Source: Patescibacteria group bacterium
Lineage (GTDB): Bacteria; Patescibacteriota; Minisyncoccia; Phycocordibacterales; UBA918
Direction: 5' to 3'
Assembly (NCBI GenBank): GCA_040386275.1
Contig: JAZKFU010000002.1
Location: 16,858-80,857 of the forward strand
Length of the DNA: 64,000 nucleotides
A program made the translations under genes and the position numbers. Below are positions 5,501 to 14,408 of the stretch, piece by piece; within the stretch, counting starts at the first letter, position 1; each line of letters opens with the position of its first letter. The notes beneath the pieces were generated by a model. It saw nothing but the letters and a program-made list of their open reading frames with translations. It had not been told where the DNA came from and searched no databases.

Positions 5501-5577
5501 ATCGCCCCGAAGGAAAAATTGCGTGTTAGGGGATGGCGTGGTACTGTTTTCCTAATTGTGTGATGCACATACTATAT

Positions 5578-6573
5578 ATGTCAGAAGTTATTGAAAAGAC
5601 ACTCATTGATACTAGAGCTGGTCGAGATGTAACTTTTTTTGATTTATACTCAATTGACCAACTGACGCTGCCGGATATAAAACTAATTTTTGAAATCGCT
5701 CGTAGTTTTAGAGAGAGTAAAACTGCTAAACTGACACTCTGCAAAGGTAATACTCAAATCAATTGTTTTTTTGAACCATCTACTCGCACTCAGGCGAGCT
5801 TTGATTTATCTGCCAAACATCTCGGAATGGATACGACTAATGTGGGTGGATCTACCAGTTCAGCCAAAAAAGGAGAAAGCTACATTGATACCGTCGAAAC
5901 CCTCGATGCCTACAACGTACGTTTGATGGTGATACGCTCATCCGAAGCCGGGGTAGCGCACATGGTAGCGAGTACCGTGCGAGCGAGTGTGCTTAATGCA
6001 GGTGATGGATATCATGAGCACCCGACCCAAGGGTTGCTTGATGCTCTTACCATTCTCGATGAACTTAAAACAGATTCTCTAGAAGGTAAGGTGGTGGTGA
6101 TTGTCGGTGATATTTTGCACTCACGGGTATTTGGTTCGTTAGTACGAATACTAAAAAAACTAGGCGCAACGATACGGGTAGCGGCTCCCCAAACTTTTTT
6201 ACCAGCCGAAGTAGAGAAATTTGGCCTTACTACCTACTACAATGTGGAAGAAGCACTTATTGGTGCAGACGTGGTGTATGCCTTGCGGGTACAAGAAGAG
6301 CGGGGAGCTACCGGATTTATTCCTACCTTGCGCGAGTACTCTAAAACATTTGGTATCTCGGAAAAACGTTTGAACCTTGCCAAGCCCGGCGCAATTTTAA
6401 TGCACCCAGGACCTGTGATTCGTGATATTGATATTCACTCAGCCTTGGTGTCGCGTCATCCCAAGTCGCGCATATTGAGACAAGTGGAAAATGGCATGGC
6501 CGTTCGAAAAGCATTAATTTGGCTGTTGGTAGAACGATATGATAAAAAAGTAAAACCGCACGCGTATCTATAA
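5578..6573 (+). CDS. pyrB: Aspartate carbamoyltransferase catalytic subunit
   Basis: STRTQ motif (EPSTRTQASF), HPTQ motif, carbamoyltransferase fold. Start chosen at MSEVIEKTL; the ORF is open from 5533. Confidence 0.85.
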   Translation: MSEVIEKTLIDTRAGRDVTFFDLYSIDQLTLPDIKLIFEIARSFRESKTAKLTLCKGNTQINCFFEPSTRTQASFDLSAKHLGMDTTNVGGSTSSAKKGESYIDTVETLDAYNVRLMVIRSSEAGVAHMVASTVRASVLNAGDGYHEHPTQGLLDALTILDELKTDSLEGKVVVIVGDILHSRVFGSLVRILKKLGATIRVAAPQTFLPAEVEKFGLTTYYNVEEALIGADVVYALRVQEERGATGFIPTLREYSKTFGISEKRLNLAKPGAILMHPGPVIRDIDIHSALVSRHPKSRILRQVENGMAVRKALIWLLVERYDKKVKPHAYL

Positions 6574-7910: not shown

Positions 7911-8273
7911 ATGTTCCTCGAAGGAGTGCTAGAAATGCCCAGTCCCCGATTGGTTACCCTTGTCATCACGACCTCGCACAAAGCGCGTGGTCCTGACGTG
8001 CAAGAACTGTGTGCCTTGCCCTTGCAACAACAGTTTGCCTTGGATGCCCCTCACCAGGTAGTGGTGCACCATGCTTTCTCGTTTGCTGATGTTCCTGAAT
8101 CGCCGACTGTGGCAACACTCGTGTTTCGGTACAGTACCGGCTTCGCGAACGTCACTGCGTACGAGACCTTGAGCGACACTGAGGGTAAGATTATTCAGTT
8201 GGTCAAAGTGGCTTTTGAAGTCGACGAGGTGTACTTCGCGACTGAAGTTGTAGATTTCAAGCGAGCAGGATAA
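7911..8273 (+). CDS. Hypothetical protein, 120 aa, in a GC-rich patch
   Basis: ORF with visibly higher G+C than flanking genes. No motif recognised. Confidence 0.4.
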   Translation: MFLEGVLEMPSPRLVTLVITTSHKARGPDVQELCALPLQQQFALDAPHQVVVHHAFSFADVPESPTVATLVFRYSTGFANVTAYETLSDTEGKIIQLVKVAFEVDEVYFATEVVDFKRAG

Positions 8274-8321: not shown

Positions 8322-9036
8322 AGACTATCTTCGCGACTGACACAATAAGCGCAATCAGGAACGCCAGACGTATGAGCCAGTTTTGTTTCTGTGGTGGCCA
8401 CCGTCCAGTATGTTTGATAATCAGCCCCCCAATTAGTCCTCCCACCATGCCCCCCGCAGCCCACGTGAGCGCAAGTGGCCAATCAATAAGATTGAAGTGC
8501 CAAAACGTAAGCACCGCTACGGTGCTTAATAGGAGTTCGAGCAGCAGTGCGTTTGCTCTCGCGTCGACTAGAGACGTGTCACGCAACTGCAGGAGTGACA
8601 GTATGAGTAGCATGATACCCGCTCCAAAGATGCCGCCGTAGAAACCAACTAAAAACGTCACTAGCCAAAACAGATACGGAGGCAGTTTGAGTCGGTGTCC
8701 ATACTCATGAATCGCTAGTCCAATGATGAGAACCAGAGGTACGATTTCATGAGAGACAGACACAACGAGCCAGGAGCCGACGATACTCCCAACACACAGA
8801 ACTGGTGCCAGCCAAAGTATTTGGCGGTCAATCTTACGATACAGCGGCAGAAGCGCAGTGGCGTTGCGAAAGATACTGCCGAACTTAATATTGCCAACGA
8901 TGGCTCCGAGCGACATCTCGGGAAACAGAATTTGAAAGAGCGGGAGAGAAAGAAATAACGTCCCACCCATCACGACAGCAAAAACGCCGATTAGAATGGC
9001 GCTTATGAAGATAATGCCGAACATGAGTATGTCCAT
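8320..9036 (-). CDS. TauE/SafE family sulfite exporter (DUF81) membrane protein
   Basis: 238 aa with 7-8 TM helices, internal duplication and Gly-rich 'GGIFGAGIM' / 'GGMVGGLIGG' motifs typical of TauE/SafE. Confidence 0.7.
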   Translation of the reverse strand: MDILMFGIIFISAILIGVFAVVMGGTLFLSLPLFQILFPEMSLGAIVGNIKFGSIFRNATALLPLYRKIDRQILWLAPVLCVGSIVGSWLVVSVSHEIVPLVLIIGLAIHEYGHRLKLPPYLFWLVTFLVGFYGGIFGAGIMLLILSLLQLRDTSLVDARANALLLELLLSTVAVLTFWHFNLIDWPLALTWAAGGMVGGLIGGLIIKHTGRWPPQKQNWLIRLAFLIALIVSVAKIV

Positions 9037-9081
9037 GGTTTCCTCCTCAAGACTGCGCCGAGTCTAGCACGTCTAAAACAA

Positions 9082-11280
9082 TTACTCCATATGCAAACTT
9101 TCTCCGAGTTTTGCTACACGAGCGGCAATCAACGGGTAGTCATCAGCAATGTTTGGGTGTTTAGCAACCAGTTGTTGCGCTTCAGTCCGGGCAGCTTCAA
9201 CTAACTTTAAATTTTTAATCGCTTCCATCCCGAGGTCAGACAAGCCTGATTGCTTTTGACCGTACAGTTCACCCGAGCCACGAAAATTTAAATCGTGTTC
9301 AGCTAACTCAAAACCATTTTTAGCAGTAACGAGCGCCTTGAGTCGTTCTTTAGTTTTATCACTTTTACTATCCGTCACTGCAAAGCAGTACGGCTGATGC
9401 GTACCACGCACTACGCGTCCGCGAAGCTGGTGTAATTGCGAAAGGCCAAATCGTTCGGCGCCTTCAATAATGATATTCGTGGCATTGGGCACGTTAACGC
9501 CTACTTCTACCACGGAGGTAGCCACGAGAATATCGAGCTTGTGTTCCGAAAATTCTTTCATGACTTTGTCTTTATCGGCCGGCGTCATTTTGCCGTGTAT
9601 TACGCCGATGGTGTAATCACGAAACTCAGTGGTGGAGAGTCGCTTGGCTTCGGCAACGACAGATTTTAATTGGAGCGCTGTTTGTTTGTCGGGATCCGGT
9701 TCTTCAATCCGCGGACAAATTACATACGCTTGGCGCCCAGATTGTAGTTCACTGCGTACATGTTCGTACATTTTGCCTGATTGTCCCGGTCCGATAATTT
9801 CCGTAATAATTGGTTTGCGTCCCGCTGGCATTTGGTCGAGTAACGTAATATCGAGGTCACCGTAAATGGTGAGGGCGAGAGTGCGGGGAATCGGCGTAGC
9901 GGTCATTGATAATAGATGAGGCATACGCGCATCTTTTTTGGCAAGCTGTTTTCGTTGGTTGGTACCAAAGCGGTGTTGTTCGTCAATAATAACGTAGGCG
10001 AGATGTTTAAACTCCACACTCTTGTAAATGAGTGCATGGGTTCCAATCAAAATCGGTACCTCACCGTTTTTCACCCACTTAAGTAACTGCGCACGTGAGA
10101 TAGGGGTCGGTTTATCCGCATTACTTTTACTCGGAAATTTTTGACACCCGGAACCTGTAATTAAACCGATATTAATTGGAAGGTGTTTAAAATATTCAAT
10201 AAATGATTCAAAGTGTTGTTTGGCTAAAATCTCAGTGGGGGCCATGTAGGCCACTTGTAAATTACCGAAGGCTAAGTCTGCAGTAGAGCCACTGTCTGAC
10301 TTGCGTCCTTCTGGCGGGCGACTGGTTGCTACCGCATAAGCGGTCGTTGCCGCTACTGCTGTTTTTCCACTTCCCACGTCACCCTCGAGTAATCGGGACA
10401 TAGCGTGGTTTTTGGTAAAGTTGTCGATGATAGATTGAATGGAAGTAGTTTGAGCCGGTGTCAGCGCAAAAGGGAAACGGTCGGTAAATTGTTTGAGGTG
10501 TTTCGGGTCGGTGTTTACTTGGTACGTTGACGCTGCTGACACCAACGCGCGATCAATCGCTTTTTGGGTTTGAATATAAAATACTTCCTCAAAGGCAAAC
10601 CGCTTCCGTGCACTGCCGGCATGTTCCGCTTTTTTAGGAGAGTGAATCCATACAAGTGCCGTTTTTAAAACCGGCAGTTTATATTTTTCCAATATCGAGG
10701 GAGGTATCGGGTCCGGCATGTGTTCAAGCACTCCCGCTTCAAAACATTTTAATGCTGTGTGATAAAACCATTTACTCGTGACACCCTTGGTCTCTCGATA
10801 GACAGGGTAAATGGTTTCATCCATGGTGGCGTCAGTGCCTTTAAAAATACTGTCATGTCGGTCAATGGGGAGACTATCGAGTTTTTCTACTTCGGGATTG
10901 GCGATATATAGTTTGCCATCAGTGCCGGTAACTTTTCCGACAAGCTTCACAAACATCCCGTCGCTATACATTTTGGCGAGGTAGGGTTGGTTAAACCACA
11001 TGATTTTAATTTTGGCTGAACCATCTTCAATGTAGCCTTCGGCAATCGGGCGTTTACTTTTCCAAGCTTTGCGTAACTTTAGCCCCGACAGTTGTCCGAA
11101 TACAATCGCTTCTTGGTCTTTCTGCAATCCGCCCACTGATTGTATGTCAGACACATCTTCGTAACGAGCGGGAACGTGCATTAGTAAATCATAGACGGTG
11201 GCGATACCGAGTTTCTTGAGTGCTTTTTGGTGCGGCACATCTATACGAAAGTGAGCAGACAAAAGGTCGGTTGGTTTCAT
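9082..11280 (-). CDS. recG: ATP-dependent DNA helicase RecG
   Basis: 732 aa with wedge domain, helicase motifs (GDVGSGKT, DEQHRFG) and C-terminal RecG motifs. Confidence 0.9.
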   Translation of the reverse strand: MKPTDLLSAHFRIDVPHQKALKKLGIATVYDLLMHVPARYEDVSDIQSVGGLQKDQEAIVFGQLSGLKLRKAWKSKRPIAEGYIEDGSAKIKIMWFNQPYLAKMYSDGMFVKLVGKVTGTDGKLYIANPEVEKLDSLPIDRHDSIFKGTDATMDETIYPVYRETKGVTSKWFYHTALKCFEAGVLEHMPDPIPPSILEKYKLPVLKTALVWIHSPKKAEHAGSARKRFAFEEVFYIQTQKAIDRALVSAASTYQVNTDPKHLKQFTDRFPFALTPAQTTSIQSIIDNFTKNHAMSRLLEGDVGSGKTAVAATTAYAVATSRPPEGRKSDSGSTADLAFGNLQVAYMAPTEILAKQHFESFIEYFKHLPINIGLITGSGCQKFPSKSNADKPTPISRAQLLKWVKNGEVPILIGTHALIYKSVEFKHLAYVIIDEQHRFGTNQRKQLAKKDARMPHLLSMTATPIPRTLALTIYGDLDITLLDQMPAGRKPIITEIIGPGQSGKMYEHVRSELQSGRQAYVICPRIEEPDPDKQTALQLKSVVAEAKRLSTTEFRDYTIGVIHGKMTPADKDKVMKEFSEHKLDILVATSVVEVGVNVPNATNIIIEGAERFGLSQLHQLRGRVVRGTHQPYCFAVTDSKSDKTKERLKALVTAKNGFELAEHDLNFRGSGELYGQKQSGLSDLGMEAIKNLKLVEAARTEAQQLVAKHPNIADDYPLIAARVAKLGESLHME

Positions 11281-11392
11281 ACGGGAATATACTTAGATTA
11301 TACAGTATACTGCTTCTATTGACTTTTGGTATTAAATATGCTACAATTATAATTAGTAAATTGAAACACGGGCAACCAATTGGGAGATTTGC

Positions 11393-11879
11393 CATGTTCA
11401 CCACAACCCAAGCCTTCATCAAACTCCCCTTCGTTTACGGACGCAAATTTGCGTTCGTTCGGGAGGGAGAAGCAGACATCTTCCTGCCGATTAACATCGT
11501 TCTCAAGAGCGGGTTTCAGGTCGACGAGCTGAAAATCGACGCAACGGTCGAGCTCGAGTACGAGACGGACAAGTTTGGCCGCTACCGCGCGACCATGATT
11601 CATGAAGTCGATGGGAAACTGTCGACCCAACTCTATCGGTGTAACGTCGTCGACCGTCACGGAGATCTCGCGATCATCAAGGTGGTCGATATCACGTCTT
11701 TCTATGCGATCGCCTATCGGGTCATCGACAAGGAGGGGTGCAAGAAATCTTCGCACCCCACGCTTGCGGCCGCCCGCGCTTCCATCGGACGCGTCATCGA
11801 AACACCGCAGGCTGTCGGTCATGGTCGCAAGACCAATGTCATCAAGGTGATGGAGGACAAGAAGAAAAAGGCCGCTTAG
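11393..11879 (+). CDS. Hypothetical protein with cold-shock-like OB-fold N-terminus and Lys-rich C-terminus, on a GC-rich islet
   Basis: SD GGGAG 8 nt upstream of ATG. 'VYGRKFAFVREGEADIFLPINIV..GFQV' resembles a CSD pattern. The antisense ORF 11316-11822 is judged spurious. Confidence 0.45.
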
Positions 11880-12034
11880 GCCAACAACAAGCTCATTCAG
11901 TCTATTCTGTACACATTGTGTACAAATATGACTGAGTGAGTTTTTTCGTTTCCATCACTTTACAAATAACGAGCTTCTCTATATATTAATCAAATTGGTT
12001 GCAATGACGCGCCATGTTCTTTACAGGAGGAATC

Positions 12035-12403
12035 ATGAAGCTTCTGTTTTTCCGTGCGCTTTCGGCTATTGCCGCGTTCGCACTCCTGATTGCGTTCTCG
12101 CCAGGGCCTGAGATTCAGCTCGCGCTTGCTGTGCTCGTGGCGACCGCAACCGTCGTGCTGGCGGTACCCTGGAAATCGAACATCTTCTTTACCGTCGTCG
12201 ACGACCTGACCGGACATGGACACATCACGCAGACCGCGGTGGATGGTCATGGCCCGCCTCGTTGGCTCTTCTTCATGTTGACCCTCTGGGCGCTTGTCCT
12301 GGCGACGTGGAGTCGTATCGAACGCACCGTTATGAAGCTTGCATCATCGGCCGGCCATCGCCTGGCGCAGACCAACACCTCGGCGCAACCCTTGCCGTCG
12401 TGA
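12035..12403 (+). CDS. Hypothetical secreted/membrane protein, 122 aa, on a GC-rich islet
   Basis: AGGAGG SD 5 nt upstream of ATG. Signal-peptide-like N-terminus MKLLFFRALSAIAAFALLIAFSPGP. Confidence 0.45.
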   Translation: MKLLFFRALSAIAAFALLIAFSPGPEIQLALAVLVATATVVLAVPWKSNIFFTVVDDLTGHGHITQTAVDGHGPPRWLFFMLTLWALVLATWSRIERTVMKLASSAGHRLAQTNTSAQPLPS

Positions 12404-12585
12404 CAATATTCCTAGGGGCGCATCATGCGCCCCTAGACCCACCGACTCGTATGTCATTTTCTAAATGAAAAGACACTCGAGTCTTTTCTTTTGTCTGATT
12501 TTTTAACTAATTACTAAACGTACTTGTGCACGTATTAAGCTTGTAATGTTTTGACAATTTAAAAAACGGGGCGTACTATAAATTT

Positions 12586-12878
12586 GGCACGTACACAAGG
12601 GGCGGCCAAGCAACTGGGTTCACACCCAAAGTAGTAACATTCTCAGAGATGAGGGATACCAATGAATGCACCTGTTGTTCTTTTGACCTTTGGTCAGCCT
12701 GGCGATCCGGAAGCGGTTCGCACGAAGCTTCGCTTTGGGCTGTTCCAAAGGCAGTGAGCACTGGCGCTTGCGTAAGGCCGTGACGTTGTCACACACATAC
12801 GGGACGGAGCGCAAGCTCCGTCCCTACTTTCCTCCATAGAGTAACGATACAATCCCCGCACTAGCGCGGGCTTTTTTG
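12586..12878 (+). ncRNA. Candidate structured small RNA or small-protein transcript (promoter 12551-12579, terminator 12853-12878)
   Basis: TTGACA-17-TACTAT promoter. Roughly 290-nt unit containing GGGACGGAGC-GCAA-GCTCCGTCCC (10-bp stem, GNRA loop) plus other hairpins and a possible 35-aa ORF (12662-12769, SD GAGGGA). Ends in hairpin CCCGCACTAGCGCGGG plus T6. Confidence 0.3.
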
Positions 12879-12906
12879 TTTCTGGTATACTAGGGTATTA
12901 ATTTTT

Positions 12907-14154
12907 ATGTCTATGCCAAATCAGAAAAAAGCTGGTGTTAAAAAAGCGGTAAAAAAAGAAACGGTAACCAACGTAGTATCTAAAAAGGTGGCCAATAAAT
13001 CTGCTCCCACTGCCAAGAAAAAAGACTACAATAAATTAGCCCTCGCACTCCATAAAAAACTAAAAGGTAAGTTGTCAGTAGTGAGTAAAGGCAAGCTCGA
13101 AACGCGCGATGAGTGGAGTACGATGTACAGTCCAGGGGTTGGTGCTGTTTCTTCATATCTCGCTAAGCATCCAAAAGAAGCGCGTGAGTATACGATTAAG
13201 AAAAATACGGTCGCTGTTATTTCTGATGGATCAGCGGTACTGGGCTTGGGTAACCTCGGTGCCCTCGCTGCGTTGCCGGTGATGGAGGGGAAGTGTGCCA
13301 TTTTTAAAGAAATGGCCGGTGTCGATGCATTTCCGATTGTGCTTGATACACAAGATCCCGAAGAGATTATTAAAATTGTAAAAGCAATTGCGCCGACTTT
13401 TGGGGGGATTAACCTCGAAGATATTTCAGCGCCGAATTGTTTTGTGATTGAAGAGCGTTTAAAGAAAGAACTTGATATTCCTGTCATGCATGATGACCAA
13501 CATGGAACGGCCATAGTGGTCTTGGCTGGTTTGATTAATGCGAGTAAGGTGGTGGGTAAAAAATTAGAGGCACTCAAGGTAGTGATTGTGGGCGCTGGGG
13601 CTGCCGGACGTGCTGTCACGCTCATGTTACAAAAAGCCGGTATTACGCACATAATTGTCACGGACAGTAAAGGAGCAATTTACACTGGCCGGCCTGACTT
13701 AACGGGATACAAAAAAGAATTAGCTAGTACCACCAATCCCGAAAAATTAATGGGCGATGTGATGAACGTTGTTGCGGGAGCTGATGTGATTGTAGGGGTG
13801 TCAGGACCAGGCACTATTGCGCCTGCGCATATTGAAAAGATGGCTCCTAACGCCATAGTGTTTGCGCTTGCTAACCCAATTCCGGAAATAATGCCTGAAG
13901 ACGCTAAGCGCGCCGGGGCGGCGGTGGTAGCAACCGGCCGAAGCGACTACGCTAATCAAGTAAACAACTCACTGGCATTCCCGGGAGTATTTCGAGGAGC
14001 GCTTGATCGAAATGTGCGCGCCATTACCGATGATATGAAATTAGCGGCTGCTAAAAAAATTGCGAGCTTGGTAAAAAACCCGACCGCTGAGATGGTGATT
14101 CCACCCGTGATGACGCCGGGGTTAGTGAAAGCGGTAGCGAGCGTGATTCGATAG
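12907..14154 (+). CDS. NAD(P)-dependent malic enzyme (short form) with Lys-rich N-terminal extension
   Basis: Malic enzyme motifs 'VISDGSAVLGLGNLGA', 'GGINLEDI', Rossmann 'VVIVGAGAAG'. The first ~45 aa are Lys/Ala-rich and low complexity. Confidence 0.85.
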   Translation: MSMPNQKKAGVKKAVKKETVTNVVSKKVANKSAPTAKKKDYNKLALALHKKLKGKLSVVSKGKLETRDEWSTMYSPGVGAVSSYLAKHPKEAREYTIKKNTVAVISDGSAVLGLGNLGALAALPVMEGKCAIFKEMAGVDAFPIVLDTQDPEEIIKIVKAIAPTFGGINLEDISAPNCFVIEERLKKELDIPVMHDDQHGTAIVVLAGLINASKVVGKKLEALKVVIVGAGAAGRAVTLMLQKAGITHIIVTDSKGAIYTGRPDLTGYKKELASTTNPEKLMGDVMNVVAGADVIVGVSGPGTIAPAHIEKMAPNAIVFALANPIPEIMPEDAKRAGAAVVATGRSDYANQVNNSLAFPGVFRGALDRNVRAITDDMKLAAAKKIASLVKNPTAEMVIPPVMTPGLVKAVASVIR

Positions 14155-14219: not shown

Positions 14220-14408
14220 TTAATCGTAGTCGTGTTCGGTATCGTCATCGCCAGGAATACCTGAGCCAAATTGCGGTATCAGTACCACCGCCTCTTGTGC
14301 ATGGTGCGTGCAGGCACAACCTTTACCCAAAGGTATCTGTAGCGTGCAACCGCTCACCAAACATTTCATTGTTTCTGTGCCTTCGGCACTGGGGGTATCT
14401 GTCGTCAT
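14220..14408 (-). CDS. Small Cys/His-rich hypothetical protein, 62 aa
   Basis: SD AGGGAG upstream. Sequence 'CLVSGCTLQIPLGKGCACTHH' has 5 Cys and 2 His. Confidence 0.4.
   Translation of the reverse strand: MTTDTPSAEGTETMKCLVSGCTLQIPLGKGCACTHHAQEAVVLIPQFGSGIPGDDDTEHDYD

Follow-up and report, generated by a model that had tools for sequence, protein, structure and literature searches.

Here we report a 1.6-kb islet in the spacer between recG and a malic-enzyme gene of a Patescibacteria group bacterium, located in a stretch of 64,000 nucleotides of contig JAZKFU010000002.1 (assembly GCA_040386275.1, positions 16,858 to 80,857 of the forward strand), hereafter called the window. The islet consists of three self-contained small units, all on the plus strand. 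Each unit shows a near-consensus sigma-70-type promoter, a hairpin in the 5' untranslated region (5'UTR), a Shine-Dalgarno sequence, a GC-rich open reading frame (ORF), a post-stop hairpin and a predicted intrinsic terminator. With a probability of about 0.5, we regard it as an accessory islet of the replacement type, which came from a GC-rich gene pool and is shuffled by homologous recombination. The three units, predicted to be independent and monocistronic, fill the recG/malic-enzyme spacer in one clade of Patescibacteria. According to this reading, alleles and cargo would pass between strains via homologous recombination in the conserved scaffolds and the flanking genes. The GC richness would date from an origin in an accessory gene pool of these bacteria that is richer in GC, and would now be slowly decaying. 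More speculatively, the allele diversity may be kept up by conflict with phages, hosts or neighbouring cells, or by recognition of them. The products would be a nucleic-acid-binding protein (ORF1), a membrane protein (ORF2) and a small peptide (sORF), judged from their sequences to be under diversifying pressure; a link of these products to interactions with phage, host or neighbours is speculation.

Distribution and allelic variation

The islet was found at the recG/malic-enzyme site, with the same scaffolds, in at least nine related genomes from independent assemblies. The carriers are L001, L003, L004, L085/L090, L087, L088, L089, L091 and L092-95, where L-numbers denote the relatives' genomes or contigs compared with the window. 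It is absent from the more distant L005, L006 and L010, in which recG and the malic-enzyme gene are adjacent (spacer below 50 bp in L006). A preliminary description, made from the window alone, had proposed horizontally acquired DNA and had counted conserved presence at this position in all relatives against that proposal; such presence is found in the carriers and not in the three distant genomes. Judged by the malic enzyme, the closest species representative is a Candidatus Nomurabacteria chromosome (L005, 78% amino acid identity), whose recG-malic spacer (L005:6214-6982) holds different small units: first a 58-aa ORF with a GCAA-capped, GC-rich hairpin and a terminator behind it, and then a second short promoter-to-terminator unit.

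Among the relatives, amino acid identity is 93-99.8% for RecG and 92-99% for the malic enzyme. The regulatory scaffolds of the islet are 90-100% identical, whereas the ORF bodies are highly divergent alleles or unrelated genes. For L003 and L092, RecG is 99.8% identical (synonymous divergence, dS, 0.12), while ORF1 is 64% (dS 0.74) and ORF2 52% identical (dS 0.66). Identity profiles are mosaic: promoter and 5'UTR match at 100%, up to about 5 nt beyond the ATG, the ORF body at about 50%, and the terminators again at 90-95%. Between the window and L001, pyrC, the TauE-type gene and recG have dS values of 0.10-0.35, and the DNA is 97% identical over 1.4 kb of pyrC-TauE, whereas ORF2 is 58% identical, the first ORF position (slot 1) holds an unrelated 348-aa protein in L001, and L001 has an extra 141-aa gene. 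This extra gene, 136-141 aa long, is equally variable, with a GC content at third codon positions (GC3) of only 0.45-0.49. Vertical descent of the islet with the genome had been our first inference and was overturned by these comparisons of close genomes.

ORF2 identity is 52-68% regardless of genome distance, and in genomes with saturated flanks (dS 1.2-2.3) ORF2 is not more divergent (dS 0.5-0.9). In L090 and L093, a 600-bp tract of 98-100% identity lies beside an ORF2 body of 53-73%. The alleles are discrete and stable, as L089 and L092, which come from different studies, have near-identical ones. Most of the variation in ORF1 and ORF2 falls in the N-terminal two-thirds, the C-terminal parts being conserved with sharp boundaries. 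The sORF does not co-vary with ORF2: L085 and L092 have the sORF in common, yet their ORF2 alleles are about 59% identical. The abrupt identity steps and near-identical tracts at the borders appear to carry the signature of homologous recombination, and the islet must be old, because it occupies the same site in at least nine relatives with allele dS values of 0.5-1.1.

Base composition and a possible GC-rich gene pool

The mean GC content of the window is 0.438. The GC-rich islet noticed in the preliminary description at about 11390-12880 was borne out by windowed GC, which is not uniform: the highest 300-400-bp peak of the 64 kb lies at about 12050-12100 (0.61-0.62, z 4.4-4.7) and the second-highest at about 11450-11530 (0.56-0.57, z 3.3-3.4). 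The excess is discontinuous, with 0.545 in ORF1, 0.602 in ORF2 and 0.544 in the unit-3 transcript, against 0.32-0.37 in the three spacers. It is mostly a third-codon-position effect, and the codon usage suspected to be atypical is indeed so, GC3 being 0.716 in ORF1 and 0.707 in ORF2 versus 0.396 +/- 0.072 in the window genes of at least 100 aa. At two-fold codons C/(C+T) is 0.61-0.63 in ORF1 and ORF2 versus 0.32 +/- 0.10 in window genes, and G/(A+G) is 0.63-0.67 versus 0.27 +/- 0.10, so that C- and G-ending codons are both about twofold enriched. The order GC3 > GC1 > GC2, together with ratios of nonsynonymous to synonymous divergence (dN/dS) of 0.3-0.6 among homologues, confirms the annotated frames of both ORFs. 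GC3 is lower in their first quarter (0.61-0.63 versus 0.75-0.88), and all alleles in the relatives are GC3-rich (0.61-0.80). Long antisense ORFs opposite ORF1 and ORF2 were dismissed as a by-product of GC richness; they are unconserved, and that of ORF2 is broken in the window. For comparison, the pilin gene, likely highly expressed, has a GC3 of 0.31; no r-protein genes occur in the window or 10 kb beyond.

Third-position singletons in ORF1 and ORF2 run 47 from strong to weak pairs (S>W) against 20 in the opposite direction (W>S), while recG, the major facilitator superfamily (MFS) gene and the malic-enzyme gene together give 145 against 172 (Fisher p 4e-4). Taken singly, the controls recG and MFS are balanced and malic leans opposite to the islet. 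The third positions of ORF1 and ORF2 seem to be losing GC, which fits a GC-richer start and slow amelioration. Two other sources of the GC excess were considered and set aside. In codon-shuffle controls, ORF2 gave no sign of selection for a special mRNA fold and ORF1 a weak one (folding z of 0 to +2 and -0.9 to -3.5, respectively). Fine-scale GC-biased gene conversion predicts that GC3 tracks column variability, and no tracking was seen (Spearman -0.10 and 0.05).

A possible source pool is indicated by L091, in which slot 1 is occupied by an HrpA-like DEAH helicase (TIGR01967, 3e-90), an ordinary gene of Patescibacteria type. This helicase is 72-77% identical to genes that lie in blocks of GC3 0.74-0.89 beside large serine recombinases, which shows that a GC-rich accessory pool can furnish the islet with cargo. 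At L098:4369-8786 and L099:4655-10770 there are blocks of orphan genes with GC3 0.67-0.89, on contigs with a GC content of about 0.45-0.52 outside them; they adjoin large serine recombinases with Resolvase, Recombinase and Zn_ribbon domains, in L099 also a tRNA, and are possibly integrative elements of Patescibacteria. The 5' leader of HrpA-like helicase genes contains a type III hammerhead ribozyme at L091:353-413, L099:5824-5878 and L098:8900-8954. At 51.9 bits the L099 copy lies above the Rfam gathering score. Those of L091 and L098 score 35 bits (E 3e-5 and 4.5e-5), and their CUGAUGA and GAAAC cores are intact; the L091 copy sits within the recG-malic islet. Another recurrent element is a leader of about 110 nt with a structured look, GGGCARCCCTGCCCG .. 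GGAAGTCAC .. GGCCGAGCAGGGTGGGT .. GCTACCCATGCTCGAGGAGATGA-ATG, which stands directly upstream of five different ORFs in the GC-rich blocks (L091:~420-545; L098:~5555-5665 and ~8965-9080; L099:~5880-6000 and ~8055-8165). Rfam has no family for it, the window does not contain it, and matches of a 17-mer of it in three viral contigs were put down to chance in GC-rich phages.

Anatomy of the three units and their flanks

Unit 1 begins with the promoter-like sequence P1 (TTGACT-17-TACAAT, TG-extended; 11319-11347), found by consensus scan. From P1 to the start codon L003 and L092 are 100% identical, and P1 also precedes the unrelated slot-1 cargo of L001 and L091. A 5'UTR hairpin, GGGCAA..TTGCC (11370-11393), which holds the Shine-Dalgarno sequence GGGAG in its loop, was recognised by inspection and is present in L089, L003 and L092 as well. 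ORF1 (11394-11879) has an N-terminal cold-shock domain (CSD), a C-terminal beta-rich domain and a KKKKAA tail. The cold-shock-like fold and lysine tail of the preliminary description thus stand, while the length is 161 aa rather than 162, the latter being the number of codons with the stop. A protein identical to ORF1 has been deposited as a hypothetical protein from a metagenome-assembled genome labelled 'Patescibacteria group bacterium'. A profile of ORF1 and two homologues, searched against PDB, matched 2mqh (E 3.9e-5) and 8tg0 (1.8e-3), and about 30 CSD chains of Csp or Lin28 over residues 5-70. Pfam CSD gave no match for the window ORF1 alone and weak matches in relatives. The RNP1-like motif reads GFGFI or GFGFV in relatives, which also have DIF(V/I); the window copy has a degenerate RNP1 (RKFAFV) and DIFLP. 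The AlphaFold2 (AF2) model is of low confidence (mean predicted local distance difference test score, pLDDT, 56), with five strands in residues 3-72 at pLDDT ~50, and Foldseek found no significant match to it in PDB. The C-terminal beta-rich domain and the KKKKAA tail have no recognisable relatives. ORF1 may therefore be described, from its sequence, as a CSD protein and predicted cytoplasmic nucleic-acid binder.

A hairpin, GGCCGCTTAGGCC, overlaps the stop of ORF1 (11870-11882) and is followed by the unit-1 terminator, a long imperfect 30-bp hairpin with a T-run (11886-11946), both located by an inverted-repeat search; relatives show this architecture too, with a different stem sequence. Slot 1 ranges from CSD proteins with either of two C-terminal domains, or another CSD protein, to the 348-aa protein of L001 and the helicase of L091. 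An identical post-stop hairpin, CAGGGCGGC-UNCG-GUCGCCCUG, stands behind three unrelated slot-1 cargos.

Unit 2 starts with P2 (TTTACA-17-TATATT; 11959-11987; consensus scan), which is conserved in L001, L085, L089, L003 and L092. The Shine-Dalgarno sequence AGGAGG (12025-12030) precedes ORF2 (12035-12403), a small His-rich membrane protein by AF2 helices and hydropathy. Its length of 122 aa agrees with the preliminary description, in which it was taken for a secreted protein. AF2 places helices at residues 2-20, 25-43 and 76-116 (pLDDT 63, low confidence; no PDB match by Foldseek). By hydropathy, two hydrophobic segments stand out clearly at the N-terminus, with a third reaching the threshold in relatives. 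The sole signal-peptidase-like site has a proline at +1, within an invariant AFS-PGP turn. ORF2 thus looks like an integral membrane protein of two to three helices and not like a secreted one. The motifs AFSPG, GHGH, HG, W-AL, WS, S-GH and SAQPLPS are invariant. A dual-start, holin-like arrangement was considered and dropped, the upstream ATG being out of frame in L001. The ORF2 family has about ten members, every one at this islet: five homologues were found in 5.8e9 clusters, and the profile gave four matches against 1.84e9 representatives. Neither ORF1 nor ORF2 has a homologue outside the islet in these two collections, in keeping with their earlier designation as orphans, and IMG/VR and phage and plasmid collections hold no relatives of them. 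Pfam, PHROGs, NCBIfam and PADLOC returned nothing for ORF1, ORF2, the sORF or the 348-aa and 136-aa cargo, and a PDB sequence search was empty for ORF2 and the 348-aa cargo.

Nine nucleotides past the ORF2 stop, the inverted-repeat search found a GC-rich hairpin at 12412-12436, described earlier as a near-perfect palindrome and in fact perfect (12+1+12). Its core GGGGCGC..GCGCCCC is retained in eight relatives, with CG, GC or AU as closing pair and with outer pairs of CTA/TAG in some relatives and GGA/TCC in others. The unit-2 terminator is a long A/U-rich hairpin with a T-run (12444-12493), whose 16-pair stem is nearly invariant in eight relatives.

Unit 3 was correctly recognised in the preliminary description as a promoter-to-terminator unit; the promoter-like sites and hairpin terminators of ORF1 and ORF2 went unmentioned there. 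Promoter P3 (TTGACA-17-TACTAT; 12551-12579; consensus scan) is conserved in L001, L004, L085, L087, L089 and L092. L090 (~866), a metagenome contig near-identical to L085 (~688-736), is without 43 bp holding P3, through natural deletion of the promoter or through a difference in assembly. The transcript, with ends inferred from promoter and terminator positions, is about 295 nt long (12586-12880) and has a minimum free energy (MFE) z-score of -3.4 against dinucleotide shuffles. A 5'-terminal hairpin (12586-12607) and a second hairpin (12616-12627) both show compensatory changes in relatives. A Shine-Dalgarno sequence, GAGG (12651-12654), precedes the sORF (12662-12757), which encodes the 31-aa peptide MNAPVVLLTFGQPGDPEAVRTKLRFGLFQRQ and replaces the 35-aa ORF first suggested. 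The sORF is open in L004, L085, L092, L087 and L091, with lengths of 31-51 aa and a drifting sequence, while the start context of GAGG, 7-nt spacer and ATG is constant in all copies. Indels relative to L004 (3, 6 and 3 nt) preserve the frame; together with the Shine-Dalgarno sequence at fixed 7-nt spacing, they are what an ordinary translated small gene would be expected to show. The best 15-residue Kyte-Doolittle mean of the peptide is 0.64 (-0.05 to 0.70 in relatives); the 51-aa variant of L091 reaches 1.62, with a marginally hydrophobic N-terminus.

Comparison with relatives revealed an invariant block across the sORF stop, GGCAGTGAGCACTGRCGCTTRCGTAAGRCC (12750-12779), which contains the near-palindrome CTTRCGTAAG; a metagenome scan with this block matched only one contig. 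The GCAA-capped 10-bp hairpin of the 3'UTR, reported earlier, is present at 12801-12824, with a GNRA loop of GCAA or GCGA in relatives and one compensatory pair (G-C to A-U). The intrinsic terminator (stem 12855-12870, then a T-run to 12880) has two compensatory pairs. A predicted long-range 5'-3' pairing was dropped, as the L004 changes GGCC->AGCC and GGCC->GACC are not compensatory. The 5' end of unit 3 (12582-12598, ATTTGGCA) is complementary over 8 nt, and over 6-8 nt in relatives, to the malic-enzyme start region (12905-12921, TGCCAAAT), which may be chance. No Rfam family was found within the islet at gathering and E-value thresholds; the best match, fstAT, covers the terminator and the malic-enzyme start with 21.4 bits (gathering score 72, E 0.81). 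Unit 3 is the least variable part of the islet and occupies one fixed locus, not being multicopy.

To the left, recG (9082-11280, minus strand; 732 aa; Pfam DEAD, Helicase_C, RecG_wedge and RecG_dom3_C) is transcribed away from the islet, divergently to the malic-enzyme gene (12907-14154, plus strand; Pfam malic and Malic_M) on the right. In L001 recG is called as two ORFs (L001:4492-6650; 172 + 546 aa), which reflects either a frameshift or a fault of the assembly. About 40 Lys-rich residues extend the N-terminus of the malic enzyme (12907-13030), its gene has no Shine-Dalgarno sequence, and the relatives suggest the second ATG (12913) as the start. Just upstream of this gene lies an extended -10-like sequence, TGGTATACT (12883-12891, plus strand), conserved in L004, L085, L091 and L092. 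No mobility gene, integrase, tRNA or flanking direct repeat occurs between recG and the malic-enzyme gene. Farther out, a 62-aa Cys-rich ORF (14220-14408, minus strand; GGAG, 7-nt spacer, ATG) lies in the malic-enzyme/MFS spacer of about 300 bp; in L004 and L090 this spacer measures only about 90-100 bp and is without the ORF. Between pyrC and the TauE-type gene there is a 112-aa orphan ORF (7935-8273) with a raised GC3 of 0.57, which, unlike the islet genes, is 98% identical in L001.

Alternative explanations, known systems and significance

The closest known counterparts are the replacement flexible genomic islands, which are exchanged by homologous recombination at conserved borders (Lopez-Perez, Martin-Cuadrado & Rodriguez-Valera 2014, PMC4033161). 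The islet resembles them in its fixed location between conserved genes, in the different genes or divergent alleles carried by close strains, and in the sharp jump of substitution density at its borders. It differs in its tiny size, with three monocistronic small genes instead of multi-gene clusters, in a recombination substrate that includes internal promoter and terminator scaffolds, and in GC-rich cargo where the usual cargo is AT-rich. Replacement islands typically encode exposed or phage-targeted structures; ORF2 is a putative membrane protein, whereas ORF1 is predicted to be cytoplasmic. Phage morons are autonomous promoter-ORF-terminator units of atypical composition. The islet units are likewise self-contained, with their own promoter and terminator and an ORF composition unlike the surroundings, but they stand at a conserved chromosomal site and not in a prophage, with no phage genes nearby and no PHROG matches. 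ORF1 is like the CspA/CspB family (PF00313) in that its N-terminal 70 residues align to CSD chains and the relatives keep GFGF(I/V). It is unlike cold-shock proteins in its 161 aa, extra C-terminal domain, Lys tail and degenerate RNP1 in the window, and unlike housekeeping Csps in that its CSD is hypervariable between strains. A literature search on cold-shock and small proteins and GC-rich islands of the Candidate Phyla Radiation (CPR) found nothing specific.

Several points weigh against a replacement-type islet drawn from a GC-rich pool. The evidence is at the level of sequence, and the case for recombination is built on identity profiles and on contrasts in dS. The relatives carrying the islet number about ten genomes, most represented by contigs of 1-3 kb. 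The direction of substitution was read from a crude parsimony count over a small number of divergent sequences. The equilibrium GC3 that it implies for ORF1 and ORF2 (0.60-0.67) exceeds the value for the flanks (0.46-0.53), so that GC-biased gene conversion or selection may play a part as well. No ORF1 or ORF2 homologue was found in the GC-rich elements, phages, plasmids or other organisms searched, and the source pool is consequently deduced from a single cargo, the L091 helicase. A cytoplasmic ORF1 fits poorly with the exposed-structure content of replacement islands, and PADLOC found no defence family.

The same observations could be explained by resident, lineage-specific genes whose GC-rich codons are maintained in place, either because selection favours them (stable mRNAs that resist nucleases would be one example) or through GC-biased gene conversion at a recombination hot spot. 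We consider this unlikely. The 5'-terminal and post-stop hairpins suggest mRNA stability, the alleles of at least nine genomes all have high GC3 within AT-rich scaffolds, no donor emerged among about 15 billion proteins, and the lower GC3 of the first ORF quarter looks as if selection sees synonymous sites. The elevated equilibrium GC3 points the same way, as does the fact that the locus clearly recombines; recombining bacterial genes tend to be GC-richer (PMC4450053). Against resident genes stand the third-position S>W excess, which is significantly unlike the controls, GC3 that does not follow column variability, and codon shuffles that reveal no extra folding in ORF2 and a weak one in ORF1. 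The pilin gene has a low GC3 despite its likely high expression, and the 136-141-aa gene is equally variable at a GC3 of only 0.45-0.49. At the other extreme, a classical island recently acquired from a distant GC-rich donor would account for the window's highest GC and GC3, the orphan proteins and the absence from L005, L006 and L010. It is very improbable and seems largely refuted by the conserved presence in relatives; moreover, the DNA between the ORFs, with its promoters and terminators, is AT-rich, conserved and like that of the host, the recG-malic spacer is devoid of integrase, tRNA and flanking direct repeats, and no donor, phage or plasmid matched. Of the horizontal origin first proposed, what stands is the composition anomaly, the patchy absence, the content differing between near-identical genomes, the loss of GC and the L091 cargo; a fresh distant import does not. 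The islet is probably old, fixed at its site, exchanged within the clade and drawn from a GC-rich pool.

Unit 3 invites explanations of its own. The preliminary description compared it to type I toxin-antitoxin or other selfish small-RNA modules, and it does resemble hok/sok and fst/RNAII as a small ORF in a highly structured, stable-looking mRNA with its own promoter; the marginally hydrophobic L091 variant and the weak fstAT match may be added. The idea fails its defining tests, because the peptide is not hydrophobic, the opposite strand of 12586-12880 has no promoter-like site by consensus scan, and no Rfam family matches (fstAT being far below its gathering score). The 31-34-aa peptides have no membrane-spanning segment (Kyte-Doolittle <=0.70), and unit 3 is single-copy at a fixed locus and the least variable part of the islet, so that such a module is hardly credible. 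Alternatively, unit 3 could be an attenuator, with leader peptide and terminator, of the malic-enzyme gene 27 nt downstream. It always lies just upstream of that gene, even in L091 with its different slot 1; the peptide is poorly conserved while ORF, Shine-Dalgarno sequence, stop context and the invariant block across the stop are kept; and the gene has no Shine-Dalgarno sequence and a start region complementary to the transcript's 5' end. Attenuation is nonetheless improbable, since the extended -10 TGGTATACT is conserved between terminator and gene in all copies, no alternative antiterminator pairing emerged, the long-range pairing has no covariation support, L090 keeps the rest of the unit without P3, and L005 has a different small unit there.

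Two further proposals concern the islet as a whole. It could be a specificity locus of co-evolving partners, similar to pherotype or toxin-immunity systems, in which the N-terminal two-thirds of ORF1 and ORF2 interact. The polymorphic comQXP region defines distinct communication groups, or pherotypes (PMC4408185). The islet is like comQXP and agr in its discrete divergent alleles between conserved flanks and a membrane protein that varies N-terminally. Sharp boundaries are a feature of comQXP-type loci, and stable alleles with conserved C-termini and such boundaries are seen here too. We give the proposal a slim chance, as the islet contains no recognisable kinase, regulator, processing or modifying enzyme, secretion signal or toxin domain, and the sORF does not co-vary with ORF2 (L085/L092). 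If it were true, the variable parts of ORF1 and ORF2 would define strain-specific compatibility groups. An undescribed cassette system, in which a dedicated mechanism distinct from integrons and diversity-generating retroelements (DGRs) inserts GC3-rich ORFs into fixed expression scaffolds, is likewise of low probability. Compatible with it are the identity step about 5 nt past the start codons, the post-stop hairpin shared behind three cargos, and the recurrent GC3-rich ORF blocks with ribozyme leaders near serine recombinases. The islet is like integron cassettes in its interchangeable ORFs, each followed by an imperfect palindrome, but each unit has its own promoter, and the recG-malic spacer contains no attC core sites and no intI or other recombinase; its palindromes are terminators, as T-runs come after them. 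A DGR target finds no support within the islet, which has no repeat copy of ORF segments, differences spanning whole ORFs including indels, and stable alleles, no search for a reverse transcriptase having been made in the rest of the genome. If a cassette system were real, it would provide ultra-small bacteria with nucleic-acid-binding and membrane proteins in a compact repertoire specific to the strain.

The genomes of Patescibacteria, or CPR bacteria, are tiny and streamlined. What distinguishes one strain from another in this group, and how the cells cope with phages and hosts, is poorly understood. The islet is a compact locus at which near-identical strains carry very different orphan small proteins that are apparently strongly expressed. 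For composition-based calls of horizontal gene transfer it holds a caution: the GC anomaly is real but probably historical, in an island that appears old, fixed at its site and exchanged within the clade. It offers promoters, 5'UTRs and terminators validated by comparison between relatives, as parts for a phylum without genetic tools. It also lends itself to strain typing as a natural marker, and it is a candidate entry point to the study of conflict or recognition at the level of strains in these uncultured organisms.

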